Origin: Escherichia coli O157:H7
GTDB lineage: Bacteria > Pseudomonadota > Gammaproteobacteria > Enterobacterales > Enterobacteriaceae
Reading direction: 5' to 3' (one strand)
NCBI RefSeq assembly: GCF_013167455.1
Contig: NZ_CP038328.1
Length of the DNA: 64,000 nt
The notes beneath the pieces were generated by a model. That model was not told the DNA's origin and searched no databases. It was given only the letters and a program-made list of their open reading frames with translations. Below are positions 15,832-19,741 of this stretch, piece after piece. Position numbers and translations under genes: made by a program. The number at the start of each line of letters is the position of its first letter. Position 1 is the first letter of the stretch.

Positions 15832-17808
15832 ATGTCTGACGACATGTCTATGGGTTTGCCTTCGTCAGCGGGCGAACACGGTGTACTACGCTCCATGCAG
15901 GAGGTTGCAATGAGCTCCCAGGAAGCCAGCAAGATGCTGCGTACTTACAATATTGCCTGGTGGGGCAATAACTACTATGACGTTAACGAGCTGGGCCACA
16001 TCAGCGTGTGCCCGGACCCGGACGTCCCGGAAGCTCGCGTCGATCTCGCGCAGTTAGTGAAAACTCGTGAAGCACAGGGTCAGCGTCTGCCTGCACTGTT
16101 CTGTTTCCCACAGATCCTGCAGCACCGTTTGCGTTCCATTAACGCCGCGTTCAAACGTGCGCGGGAATCCTACGGCTATAACGGCGATTACTTCCTTGTT
16201 TATCCGATCAAAGTTAACCAGCACCGTCGCGTGATTGAGTCCCTGATTCATTCGGGCGAACCGCTGGGTCTGGAAGCCGGTTCCAAAGCCGAGTTGATGG
16301 CAGTGCTGGCACATGCTGGCATGACCCGTAGCGTCATCGTCTGCAATGGTTATAAAGACCGCGAATATATCCGCCTGGCATTAATTGGCGAGAAGATGGG
16401 GCACAAGGTCTATCTGGTCATTGAGAAGATGTCAGAAATCGCCATTGTGCTGGATGAAGCAGAACGTCTGAATGTCGTTCCTCGTCTGGGCGTGCGTGCA
16501 CGTCTGGCTTCGCAGGGCTCCGGTAAATGGCAGTCCTCCGGCGGGGAAAAATCGAAGTTCGGCCTGGCGGCGACTCAGGTACTGCAACTGGTTGAAACCC
16601 TACGTGAAGCCGGGCGTCTCGACAGCCTGCAACTACTGCACTTCCACCTCGGTTCGCAGATGGCGAATATTCGCGATATCGCGACAGGCGTTCGTGAATC
16701 CGCGCGTTTCTATGTTGAGCTGCACAAGCTGGGCGTCAATATTCAGTGCTTCGACGTCGGCGGCGGTCTGGGCGTGGATTATGAAGGTACTCGTTCGCAG
16801 TCCGACTGTTCGGTGAACTACGGCCTCAATGAATATGCCAACAACATCATCTGGGCGATTGGTGATGCGTGTGAAGAAAACGGTCTGCCGCATCCGACGG
16901 TAATCACCGAATCGGGTCGTGCAGTGACTGCGCATCACACCGTGCTGGTGTCTAATATCATCGGCGTGGAACGTAACGAATACACGGTGCCGACCGCGCC
17001 TGCAGAAGATGCGCCGCGCGCGCTGCAAAGCATGTGGGAAACCTGGCAGGAGATGCACGAACCGGGAACTCGCCGTTCTCTGCGTGAATGGTTACACGAC
17101 AGTCAGATGGATCTGCACGACATTCATATCGGCTACTCTTCCGGCACCTTTAGCCTGCAAGAACGTGCATGGGCTGAGCAGCTTTATTTGAGCATGTGCC
17201 ATGAAGTGCAAAAGCAGCTGGATCCGCAAAACCGTGCTCATCGTCCGATTATCGACGAGCTGCAGGAACGTATGGCGGACAAAATGTACGTCAACTTCTC
17301 GCTGTTCCAGTCGATGCCGGATGCGTGGGGGATCGACCAGTTGTTCCCGGTTCTGCCGCTGGAAGGGCTGGATCAAGTGCCGGAACGCCGCGCTGTGCTG
17401 CTGGATATTACCTGTGACTCTGACGGTGCTATCGACCACTATATCGATGGTGATGGTATTGCCACGACAATGCCTATGCCGGAGTACGATCCAGAGAATC
17501 CGCCGATGCTCGGTTTCTTTATGGTCGGCGCATATCAGGAGATCCTCGGCAACATGCACAACCTGTTCGGTGATACCGAAGCGGTTGACGTGTTCGTCTT
17601 CCCTGACGGTAGTGTAGAAGTGGAACTGTCTGACGAAGGCGATACCGTGGCGGACATGCTGCAATATGTACAGCTCGATCCGAAAACGCTGTTAACTCAG
17701 TTCCGTGATCAAGTGAAGAAAACCGATCTTGATGCTGAACTGCAACAACAGTTCCTTGAAGAGTTCGAGGCAGGTTTGTACGGTTATACCTATCTTGAAG
17801 ATGAATAA
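15832..17808 (+). CDS. speA: biosynthetic arginine decarboxylase
   Basis: Start trimmed to [12 protein letters not shown] (658 aa). Recognised as SpeA. Confidence 0.97.
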
Positions 17809-17825
17809 TTAAGATTATTCTGCTG

Positions 17826-17866
17826 GCGGGTCGATTTATTTACGTAAATCGGTCCGCTTTCTTTTT
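17826..17866 (+). terminator. intrinsic terminator after speA
   Basis: GCGGGTCGATTTA-tttacg-TAAATCGGTCCGC stem followed by TTTCTTTTT. Confidence 0.75.
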
Positions 17867-17953
17867 ATATATTCTTAAAAATAATTTAGCTGCTTTTCTT
17901 ATTAAATAATCTCCCTACAATCGCTGCATTAATTAAATGCAGAGGGAACGGTT

Positions 17954-18685
17954 ATGAAAAAATGGAAAGTACGCAGCGCGTTGGTGGCATTAATCGTGCT
18001 GCTGGCCGGTTGTTCCAGTAATGCGCAGTATAATAGCAGTGCATCGGGCAATGTCGGCACCGCCTGGGGTGGGGATGTGCACTCAACGGTTCAGGGCGTA
18101 TCTGCTGAGCGAGCCTGGCGCGATCCGGCGGAGATGATCGTTATTAGTTATTCGACTAATGTTCCTTCCGGCTACGATCGCGTTTATAGCATTCGTATTA
18201 ACGAACTGGAATATGCTATTCGCGATGGTAATTTTAATTCTCTACCTATTACGCGTGTTTATGATTCATCTAATAATGAACCACGCTATATTGTCCATGC
18301 CAGAGTCGGAATGAATTATCAATTATATGTCCGTAATTACAGTCGTAACACCAACTACGAGATCGTTGCTACGGTTGATGGCCTGGATGTGCTGAACGGC
18401 AAGCAAGGTTCGCTGAATAACAACGGCTATATTGTGAATGCCGGAGATTCGTTAGCGATTAAAGGATTCCGCAAAGATAAACATACCGAAGCGGCTTTTC
18501 AGTTCGCCAACGTTGCTGATTCCTACGCAGCCAATTCGGCGCAAGGCGATGTGCGTAATACCGGTGTAATCGGCTTTGCCGCCTTTGAATTACAAGGCCA
18601 GGCGCAAAACGCGCTGCCACCGTGCTCTGGACAAGCCTTTCCGGCAGATAACAATGGCTATGCGCCGCCACCGTGTCGGAAATAG
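17954..18685 (+). CDS. predicted lipoprotein of unknown function (strain-variable insertion between speA and speB)
   Basis: 243-aa ORF with SD GAGGGA 6 nt upstream. The lipobox is LLAG|C, in MKKWKVRSALVALIVLLAGCSS. N/Y/S-rich, with the gene's central portion (~18180-18400) AT-rich, and I recognise no family. Confidence 0.8.
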   Translation: MKKWKVRSALVALIVLLAGCSSNAQYNSSASGNVGTAWGGDVHSTVQGVSAERAWRDPAEMIVISYSTNVPSGYDRVYSIRINELEYAIRDGNFNSLPITRVYDSSNNEPRYIVHARVGMNYQLYVRNYSRNTNYEIVATVDGLDVLNGKQGSLNNNGYIVNAGDSLAIKGFRKDKHTEAAFQFANVADSYAANSAQGDVRNTGVIGFAAFELQGQAQNALPPCSGQAFPADNNGYAPPPCRK

Positions 18686-18751
18686 CAACCTCGCTTGATG
18701 CCTCGCCCATTTAAGGCGATAATTAGCACAAACTTGTGTTTCGCAAATCCA

Positions 18752-18792
18752 ACCCTTCCTCGTCGGGCCTAACGACGCGGAAGGGTTTTTTT
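18752..18792 (+). terminator. intrinsic terminator upstream of speB
   Basis: CCCTTCC(TCGTCG-ggcctaa-CGACG)CGGAAGGG compound stem followed by TTTTTTT. Confidence 0.8.
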
Positions 18793-18820
18793 ATATCGAC
18801 TTTGTAATAGGAGTCCATCC

Positions 18821-19741
18821 ATGAGCACCTTAGGTCATCAATACGATAACTCACTGGTTTCCAACGCCTTTGGTTTTTTGCGCCTGCCGATGAACTTCCA
18901 GCCGTATGACAGCGATGCTGACTGGGTGATTACTGGTGTGCCGTTCGATATGGCCACTTCTGGTCGTGCGGGGGGACGCCACGGTCCGGCAGCTATCCGT
19001 CAGGTTTCGACGAATCTGGCCTGGGAACACAACCGCTTCCCGTGGAATTTCGACATGCGTGAGCGTCTGAACGTCGTGGACTGTGGTGATCTGGTATATG
19101 CTTTCGGCGATGCCCGTGAGATGAGCGAGAAGCTGCAGGCGCACGCCGAGAAGCTGCTGGCTGCCGGTAAGCGTATGCTCTCCTTCGGTGGTGACCACTT
19201 TGTTACGCTGCCGCTGCTGCGTGCTCATGCGAAGCATTTCGGCAAAATGGCGCTGGTACACTTTGACGCCCACACCGATACCTACGCGAACGGTTGTGAA
19301 TTTGACCACGGCACCATGTTCTATACCGCGCCGAAAGAAGGTCTGATCGACCCGAATCATTCCGTGCAGATTGGTATTCGTACCGAATTTGATAAAGACA
19401 ACGGCTTTACCGTGCTGGACGCCTGCCAGGTGAACGATCGCAGCGTGGATGACGTTATCGCCCAGGTGAAACAAATTGTGGGTGATATGCCGGTTTACCT
19501 GACCTTTGATATCGACTGCCTGGATCCTGCATTTGCGCCGGGAACCGGTACGCCGGTAATTGGCGGTCTGACCTCCGATCGCGCTATTAAACTGGTACGC
19601 GGCCTGAAAGATCTCAACATCGTTGGGATGGACGTAGTGGAAGTGGCTCCGGCATACGATCAGTCGGAAATCACCGCTCTGGCAGCGGCAACGCTGGCGC
19701 TGGAAATGCTGTATATTCAGGCGGCGAAAAAGGGCGAGTAA
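18821..19741 (+). CDS. speB: agmatinase
   Basis: 306-aa ORF in the ureohydrolase family ([21 protein letters not shown]). Recognised as SpeB. Confidence 0.97.

Follow-up and report, generated by a model that had tools for sequence, protein, structure and literature searches.

Introduction

Tethered outer-membrane lipoproteins of the LpoB type are encoded by stand-alone genes and consist of a lipid anchor, a disordered linker and one small globular domain. In Enterobacteriaceae, the lipoproteins of the outer membrane do not carry Asp as the second residue (+2) of the mature chain, next to the lipidated Cys, a regularity that is referred to as the '+2 rule'. Here, we analyze a 243-codon lipoprotein gene that is located between the polyamine genes speA and speB of Escherichia coli O157:H7 and whose product shares the tripartite organization of LpoB; no sequence or structural similarity of this protein to LpoB or to other characterized lipoprotein families was detected. 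The DNA under study is a 64,000-nucleotide stretch of contig NZ_CP038328.1 (NCBI RefSeq assembly GCF_013167455.1), hereafter referred to as the window. We propose that the gene is very likely an old, vertically inherited enterobacterial gene that encodes an outer-membrane-anchored lipoprotein of a large, widespread and functionally uncharacterized family. An initial annotation, made from the sequence alone, had regarded it as an orphan, AT-rich gene of foreign origin that was inserted between speA and speB as a self-contained unit. The sequence features on which that account was built are real, whereas the account itself is not supported, and the finding is largely ordinary.

The lipoprotein gene and its locus

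The gene and its two neighbors are defined as follows.

15832..17808, plus strand: speA (biosynthetic arginine decarboxylase), the upstream neighbor (open reading frame list; 100% identity to the annotated O157:H7 speA)
17954..18685, plus strand: lipoprotein gene, 243 amino acids, WP_000758914.1 (open reading frame list, RefSeq annotation, substitution rates, homologues)
18821..19741, plus strand: speB (agmatinase), the downstream neighbor (open reading frame list, O157:H7 annotation)

These genes belong to the order metK(-), speA(+), 243-codon open reading frame (ORF)(+), speB(+), loiP(-) and tktA(+) at approximately 15.8-22.9 kb of the window. The speA stop codon at 17808 and the speB ATG at 18821 leave a spacer of 1012 bp that contains a single gene. 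The corresponding spacer of E. coli K-12 MG1655, inspected directly, spans 137 bp and contains no gene. Thus, both the ORF and its absence from K-12 are as first described, and the stated K-12 distance of about 140 bp was accurate.

The gene is already annotated, widespread and conserved. The queried 1261 bp are 100% identical to E. coli O157:H7 genomes, in which the same gene, likewise flanked by speA and speB, encodes WP_000758914.1, a protein of 100% identity. RefSeq labels the gene product 'lipoprotein' without a function, and near-identical entries from other E. coli are named 'hypothetical protein' or 'membrane protein'. The 90%-identity cluster of WP_000758914.1 comprises 4753 member sequences. 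A literature search by locus tag found no functional study of the gene.

Conserved position and probable vertical descent

Is the lipoprotein gene a newcomer to the speA-speB interval? The same gene order, with the lipoprotein gene between speA and speB, is observed in E. ruysiae, E. whittamii and two further Escherichia species and also in several Klebsiella, a Citrobacter, an Enterobacter, Phytobacter, Kosakonia, Entomohabitans and K. aerogenes. The E. albertii contig ends inside the lipoprotein gene and shows the gene directly upstream of speB, and the Salmonella gene directly follows speA. A syntenic lipoprotein gene is therefore found in at least eight genera.

The divergence of the gene matches that of its neighbors. 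Relative to E. ruysiae, the synonymous divergence (dS) is 0.318 for the lipoprotein gene, 0.323 for speA and 0.278 for speB, and the ratio of nonsynonymous to synonymous divergence (dN/dS) of the lipoprotein gene is 0.040. Relative to E. whittamii, the dS values are 0.311, 0.313 and 0.244, respectively, with a dN/dS of 0.067, and the dN/dS within E. coli is 0.17. Because dS keeps in step with that of the flanking genes and dN/dS is low, the lipoprotein gene has diverged together with its neighbors and is under purifying selection. These substitution patterns indicate that the lipoprotein gene is real and is maintained by selection, although its product evolves faster than SpeA at the protein level (53-97% versus 94-100% identity). 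Given the shared slot in sister species and genera and a dS similar to that of speA and speB, we conclude that the presence of the gene is ancestral within Escherichia and that the K-12 arrangement is derived. The description of the gene as inserted consequently fails, since the slot behind speA is filled in sister Escherichia species and in at least seven other genera. The polarity of the comparison has to be corrected: K-12 is the exception at the speA-speB locus, and a comparison with K-12 only led to the mislabeling of an ancestral gene as an insertion.

The interval has a different downstream side in Salmonella enterica (L083/L084, 5886-10732), where genes for a GntR-family regulator, a mannitol dehydrogenase, a zinc alcohol dehydrogenase and an Ldh_2-family protein follow the lipoprotein gene in place of speB. 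This arrangement suggests that the speA-speB interval has gained and lost genes repeatedly.

Base composition and the cassette hypothesis

Along the lines of the initial annotation, the gene could be part of a foreign terminator-gene-terminator cassette that the O157 lineage recently acquired between speA and speB. The absence of the gene from K-12 and the difference in spacer length are in line with such an event, as are the hairpins on either side of the gene, the similar T-rich tails TTTTTATAT that follow both hairpins 926 bp apart, the GC content at third codon positions (GC3; 47% versus 61-62% in speA and speB) and the higher frequency of rare codons than in speA and speB. However, weak expression of a gene beside two highly expressed ones would itself lead one to expect a lower GC3, and the downstream hairpin with its tail is present in K-12 as well. 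The filled slot in other species and genera and the equal dS of the gene and its flanks also contradict a recent arrival.

The composition of the gene is ordinary. The GC content of the ORF is 48.8%, compared with 51.8% for the window, and lies at the 19th percentile of 732-nt windows; thus, it is no outlier. The claim of AT richness holds for the single 60-nt line from which it was derived (18180-18239, 33% GC) but not for the ORF as a whole, and the AT-rich part (32% GC) is confined to the 145-bp intergenic stretch upstream of the ORF, a composition that is common in promoter regions. Likewise, the protein is enriched in Asn, Ser and Tyr as stated, but only mildly (9.9%, 8.6% and 5.8%, respectively).

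Features of mobility are also lacking. The spacer contains no integrase or other mobility genes, no insertion sequence features, no tRNA or attachment site and no flanking direct repeats beyond short chance matches and the T-rich hairpin tails. The family does not occur on mobilizable plasmids, given that its 12 'plasmid' matches are chromids, megareplicons or mislabeled chromosome pieces, all rated non-mobilizable. It is nearly absent from phages, with only partial homologues in three large rhizobial phages. In summary, none of the three hallmarks of an islet, namely atypical composition, mobility features and a distribution or divergence unlike vertical descent, is observed. A foreign origin thus finds no support, and the recent-cassette explanation is scarcely credible.

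A large family without a curated name

Does the lipoprotein belong to a known family? Searches of curated libraries provided no assignment. Pfam returned no match at E<=1 for the 243-residue protein and none at E<=0.01 for 10 distant homologues, and NCBIfam gave only signal-peptide-level matches to other lipoprotein families, far below the cut-off. Matches in PHROGs had E values of at least 0.027, PADLOC gave none, and a sequence-profile search of the PDB reached a best E value of 0.24. The failure to place the protein in a characterized family is therefore reproduced, and the claim that it has no family stands with respect to curated libraries.

The claim does not stand with respect to homologues, which number in the thousands. 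A word-indexed search found 286 homologues at E<=0.001, and a profile search over 1.84 billion cluster representatives at 50% identity retrieved 4173 representatives at E<=1e-3, 3238 at <=1e-10 and 513 at <=1e-30; a gene with 4173 such representatives is not an orphan. The family ranges over alpha-, beta- and gammaproteobacteria. The Salmonella homologue is 74% identical, those of Klebsiella and Citrobacter reach 61-75%, and the proteins of Variovorax, Acidovorax, Paracoccus and others share ~40% identity. Further carriers among the matches listed in a genome scan are Providencia, Proteus, Gilliamella, Neisseria, Kingella, Ralstonia, a Pseudomonas, Inquilinus and Pseudorhodobacter. In every source, the members are named 'hypothetical', 'lipoprotein' or 'membrane protein'. 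The closest named relatives are the Salmonella enterica 'outer membrane lipoprotein' orthologue (cluster P0004/P0282; 74% identity) and the K. aerogenes 'hypothetical lipoprotein' (P0045; 61% identity). Both are of equal length, share the lipobox and both C-terminal Cys residues, are encoded directly after speA and are likewise uncharacterized.

Truncated versions of the E. coli type are fairly common in public assemblies, including P0025 (174 residues, 448 member sequences), P0036 (181 residues) and P0056 (150 residues), and are 86-97% identical over 45-73% of the lipoprotein length. Such versions may stem from pseudogenization or broken assemblies in some lineages, and the lipoprotein locus of one complete genome is split between two places. 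A contig labeled Chryseobacterium sp. 18061 (L015, 6001-6729) contains a 64%-identical copy flanked by DUF4026 and DUF2314 genes, with no speA or speB nearby; given this identity, it is probably an enterobacterial contaminant or a mislabeled assembly.

The phage homologues come from three large rhizobial or agrobacterial phages (PV764938.1, MN988519.1 and NC_042013.1), two of which are jumbo phages (~470-490 kb). Their hypothetical proteins match core residues ~90-220 at 32-37% identity, and BFVD contains one viral model, A0A7S5RDU0, with 28% identity. Judged from these alignments, the core domain is occasionally present in phage genomes.

Lipoprotein signal and predicted membrane sorting

Three segments are distinguished in the protein.

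17954..18013, plus strand: lipoprotein signal peptide, residues 1-19, with the lipobox L17-A18-G19-C20 (18002-18013) and Ser at +2 (sequence; Cys20 invariant in homologues)
18053..18592, plus strand: globular all-beta core, residues 34-213, ~13 strands, with the invariant motifs LGTxWG, YEIVATVDGLDVLxGK and GFRK (AlphaFold2 model; conservation)
18593..18682, plus strand: low-confidence C-terminal tail with conserved QAFPAD...YAPPP, Cys224 (18623-18625) and Cys241 (18674-18676) (predicted local distance difference test (pLDDT) 46-65; alignment)

A lipoprotein signal was defined as a basic n-region, a hydrophobic h-region and a lipobox of the pattern [LVI][ASTVI][GAS]C, and the N-terminus of the 243-residue ORF displays all three. 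The signal peptide MKKWKVRSALVALIVLLAG contains four basic residues (three Lys and one Arg), followed by a 12-residue hydrophobic core and the canonical L-A-G-C20, and the mature protein would start with CSSN upon cleavage before Cys20, which places Ser-Ser at +2/+3. The lipobox that was first noted in the sequence is thus genuine. Cys20 does not vary across 57 aligned homologues, and most of 142 distant representatives carry the lipobox. Because the +2 residue is Ser rather than Asp, the protein is predicted to be sorted to the outer membrane.

The two Pro-Pro-Cys motifs of the C-terminus are present as described (LPPC224 and PPPC241). Cys224 and Cys241 are mostly enterobacterial, with PPPCRK in enterics versus PPPxY in other lineages of the alignment.

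Predicted fold and possible role

What could such a protein do in the cell envelope? The AlphaFold2 model, built from the 57-sequence alignment, has a mean pLDDT of 81 and a predicted template modeling score of 0.79, with pLDDT values of 82-98 in the core blocks. Residues 1-30 (signal peptide and short tether) are disordered, the core contains one short helix and the C-terminal tail is of low confidence. The core is confidently predicted to be a beta-sandwich. The alignment shows conservation of LGTxWG, YEIVATVDGLDVLxGK, GFRK and NxGVIGxAxF in the core and of QAFPAD..YAPPP in the tail. Generic Ig-like or MATH-TRAF-like beta-sandwich domains (the SPOP and USP7 MATH domains, the MSP domain and glycoside hydrolase accessory domains) are possible comparators for this fold; a Foldseek search of the PDB gave no match at E<=0.001. 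An internal duplication, hinted at by a DNA repeat (YIVHA/YIVNA), was ruled out because hhalign of the two halves gave a probability below 1%. Longer homologues differ only in that a low-complexity, Pro-, Ala- and Ser-rich tether of 100-200 residues separates the domain from the lipid anchor; Pfam found no added domains in them.

These features are consistent with the following pathway. The precursor would be exported by Sec and processed by Lgt, LspA and Lnt, with Cys20 as the lipidated residue and signal peptidase II as the cleaving enzyme, as expected from the rules of lipoprotein biogenesis. The Lol pathway would then move the lipoprotein to the inner leaflet of the outer membrane, as the Ser at +2 predicts, and a short flexible tether would hold the ~180-residue beta-sandwich in the periplasm. 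We speculate that the domain may bind an envelope protein or a glycan via the invariant polar and aromatic TVDGLDV/GFRK face and that the proline-rich C-terminal tail may serve as a second interaction element, with a Cys224-Cys241 disulfide in enterics. Our best guess is therefore a periplasmic, outer-membrane-tethered binding module that would be unrelated to polyamines.

Alternatively, the protein could be an enzyme or inhibitor that acts on cell-envelope glycans, such as a module that binds or cleaves peptidoglycan or glucan or an inhibitor of lytic enzymes, rather than a passive binder. An invariant acidic and polar cluster (E136, D142, D145, N128, R173 and K174) lies amid many invariant aromatic residues, as in carbohydrate-binding modules, and the long Pro/Ala/Ser tethers of some homologues would suit a domain that reaches away from the membrane. 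This alternative is rather unlikely.

Transcription signals around the gene

The lipoprotein gene is surrounded by the following signals.

17825..17868, plus strand: intrinsic speA terminator, a 15-pair hairpin (17825-17858) followed by TTCTTTTTAT (terminator scan; RNA fold)
17894..17921, plus strand: putative sigma-70 promoter, -35-like TTTTCT (17894-17899), 16-nt spacer and -10 TACAAT (17916-17921) (conservation)
17924..17942, plus strand: inverted repeat CTGCATT-AATTA-AATGCAG between the -10 element and the Shine-Dalgarno sequence (fold; alignment)
17942..17946, plus strand: Shine-Dalgarno sequence GAGGG, 7 nt before the ATG (sequence; purine-rich GG(G)A conserved in syntenic loci)
18695..18723, plus strand: promoter-like TTGATG-17-GATAAT, presumed speB promoter (promoter scan)
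18751..18794, plus strand: conserved hairpin and U7 upstream of speB (inverted repeat 18751-18787; fold; conservation)

The speA terminator hairpin folds with -17.8 kcal/mol (z -4.9 versus shuffled sequence) and is kept in 12 syntenic loci with changes on both arms; it does not occur in the K-12-type allele. Downstream of it, T17916, A17917 and T17921 of the -10 element (TAnnnT) as well as T17894 and T17895 are invariant in 12 loci from at least eight genera, and the -10 element is located ~30 nt upstream of the ATG. We infer from this conservation that the lipoprotein gene has its own sigma-70 promoter. The 7-bp inverted repeat at 17924-17942, which folds weakly (-7.8 to -8.6 kcal/mol, z -2.1), is kept only within Escherichia, overlaps the predicted start site and could be an operator or a 5'-UTR hairpin.

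Downstream of the gene, a layout of stop codon, GCTTGAa, 17-18 nt and GATAAT is conserved across genera and in K-12, and the promoter-like site at 18695-18723 is presumed to be part of speB rather than of the lipoprotein unit. The pre-speB hairpin folds with -24.4 kcal/mol (z -4.0 versus shuffled sequence), is identical in K-12 and, across nine sequences, has 14 conserved pairs, with compensatory changes in two of these pairs. Because it is present with or without the lipoprotein gene, K-12 included, it is part of the speB upstream region and not the edge of a cassette. The statement that two terminators bracket the gene is therefore correct in that both hairpins are real, but the downstream one belongs to the speB backbone. 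The lipoprotein transcript probably ends at this hairpin, inside the presumed speB leader.

Accounts of the gene as an independent unit fare better. With the speA terminator upstream and an invariant -10 element, the lipoprotein gene looks in silico like its own transcription unit: transcription of speA would end at the speA terminator, that of the lipoprotein gene would start from a weak sigma-70 promoter of its own and the transcript would most likely end at the conserved hairpin before speB.

The presumed speB leader has further features. A small palindrome, CACAA-AC-TTGTG, is located at 18727-18738, and the hairpin lies 26 nt before the speB ATG. Escherichia, Klebsiella, Citrobacter, Enterobacter and Entomohabitans all retain this promoter-palindrome-hairpin arrangement, with compensatory changes in the stem, and a terminator-like hairpin inside a presumed leader suggests attenuation. 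No Rfam family was matched in the region; a sub-threshold P31 match corresponds to the speA terminator hairpin on the opposite strand.

Relation to polyamine metabolism

The retention of the gene between speA and speB, or right after speA, across many enterobacterial genera could be explained by a functional coupling to polyamines, for example if the lipoprotein sensed or bound agmatine or putrescine in the periplasm. The probable end of the transcript at a hairpin shared with the speB leader would also fit such a coupling. However, the strong speA terminator and the conserved -10 element argue in silico for independence from a speAB operon, one third of E. coli lack the gene while SpeB is still identical, and unrelated sugar-metabolism genes are inserted after the gene in Salmonella. 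Furthermore, the gene has non-polyamine neighbors in Providencia, Proteus, Gilliamella, Neisseria, Kingella, Variovorax, Saezia and Trabulsiella. Outside Enterobacteriaceae, the gene is surrounded by unrelated housekeeping genes (metB/metJ, thrS/recO, mltG, map, hisD, prc and queF). Pfam analysis of 20 neighbors revealed a mixture of housekeeping genes, and clustering of the neighbors of 80 loci found no partner conserved across genera. An association with polyamine genes is thus not a constant feature of the family. A polyamine role is quite improbable because the gene has a putative promoter and a probable terminator of its own, a third of E. coli can dispense with it, its link to speB is broken in Salmonella and it lies away from polyamine genes elsewhere.

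Two alleles in E. coli

Among 5426 complete E. coli genomes, 3550 contain the lipoprotein gene, 1867 have the K-12-type junction and nine have neither. The gene-less allele, whose carriers include K-12 and BL21, is thus found in about one third of E. coli, and for this reason the window seems to hold an 'insertion' relative to K-12. It occurs in essentially one form. Over the last 77 nt of its spacer, which comprise the hairpin and the ribosome-binding region of speB, it does not differ from the window. The first ~60 nt (K-12, L092, 1869-1947; L001, 598-676) differ from the window (18686-18745) at about half of the positions, whereas the DNA that flanks this 60-nt patch shows only 0-4 differences per 100 nt. 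The architecture of the patch is nonetheless shared by both alleles: a -35-like CTTGAA/TTGATG, a 17-18-nt spacer, GATAAT and the small palindrome CACAA..TTGTG. The O157-type stretch is present in all gene-bearing E. coli alleles examined and in E. ruysiae, E. whittamii and E. albertii; no gene-bearing E. coli allele with a K-12-like patch was found.

Such a divergent patch shows that the K-12 allele did not arise from the O157-type allele by a fresh deletion. A simple deletion between the repeats was also ruled out, since the second hairpin is retained and the first is not. The K-12 patch matches poorly to either intergenic region and to all other DNA compared, and the K-12 allele looks like an old or imported gene-less allele.

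How did the gene reach its slot in the first place? In one scenario, an early ancestor of the enterobacteria received the speA terminator, the promoter and the ORF by a precise insertion immediately after the stop codon of speA, and the K-12 allele stems from a lineage that never bore the gene and was imported by homologous recombination. The speA stop of K-12 stands where the lipoprotein stop stands elsewhere, before the same promoter-hairpin-speB architecture. Moreover, the K-12 patch has diverged from the O157 type as much as those of other genera while its flanks are nearly unchanged, the O157-type patch is common to all gene-bearing E. coli and the sister species, and the gene-less allele is essentially uniform. 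These data are explained equally well by import after a precise old deletion in another lineage, and the insertion scenario is possible but somewhat doubtful. In any case, it concerns only the deep history of the locus, and the presence of the gene stays ancestral within Escherichia.

Several points weigh against our proposal of an old, vertically inherited gene for an outer-membrane lipoprotein. The gene-less allele is no simple deletion of the gene-bearing allele, and a much older insertion at the base of Enterobacteriaceae is possible. The genera named above are a sample and not a census, since the species scan yielded 600 listed pattern matches, and a species that is not among the matches listed is not informative. 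The proposed lipoprotein-gene promoter was missed by a consensus promoter scan because of its weak -35 element. The role of a binding module is a guess, as it is based on the fold class and the lack of obvious catalytic or metal-binding residues. Finally, a literature search found no experimental data on expression, lipidation, localization or phenotype.

Roughly two thirds of E. coli, O157:H7 among them, carry this conserved 'dark' lipoprotein, which also occurs in Salmonella, Klebsiella, Citrobacter and many other Proteobacteria. Because it has neither a curated family nor a structure, it is a reasonable but unremarkable target for screens in envelope biology, and the clean two-allele polymorphism of E. 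coli offers natural backgrounds with and without the gene for phenotype tests. The remaining curiosities are a Pfam-less family with no solved structural relative, the divergent K-12 patch and the hairpin in the presumed speB leader.

Variability of the adjacent interval

The neighboring speB-loiP interval also varies in E. coli (L093, L094 and L100-L102, 4470-7480). Some strains contain a gene for a 520-residue DUF1266 protein, and others contain genes for a 932-residue sigma-54 activator with a PRD domain and for a PTS EIIA protein; the interval of the window spans only 205 bp.

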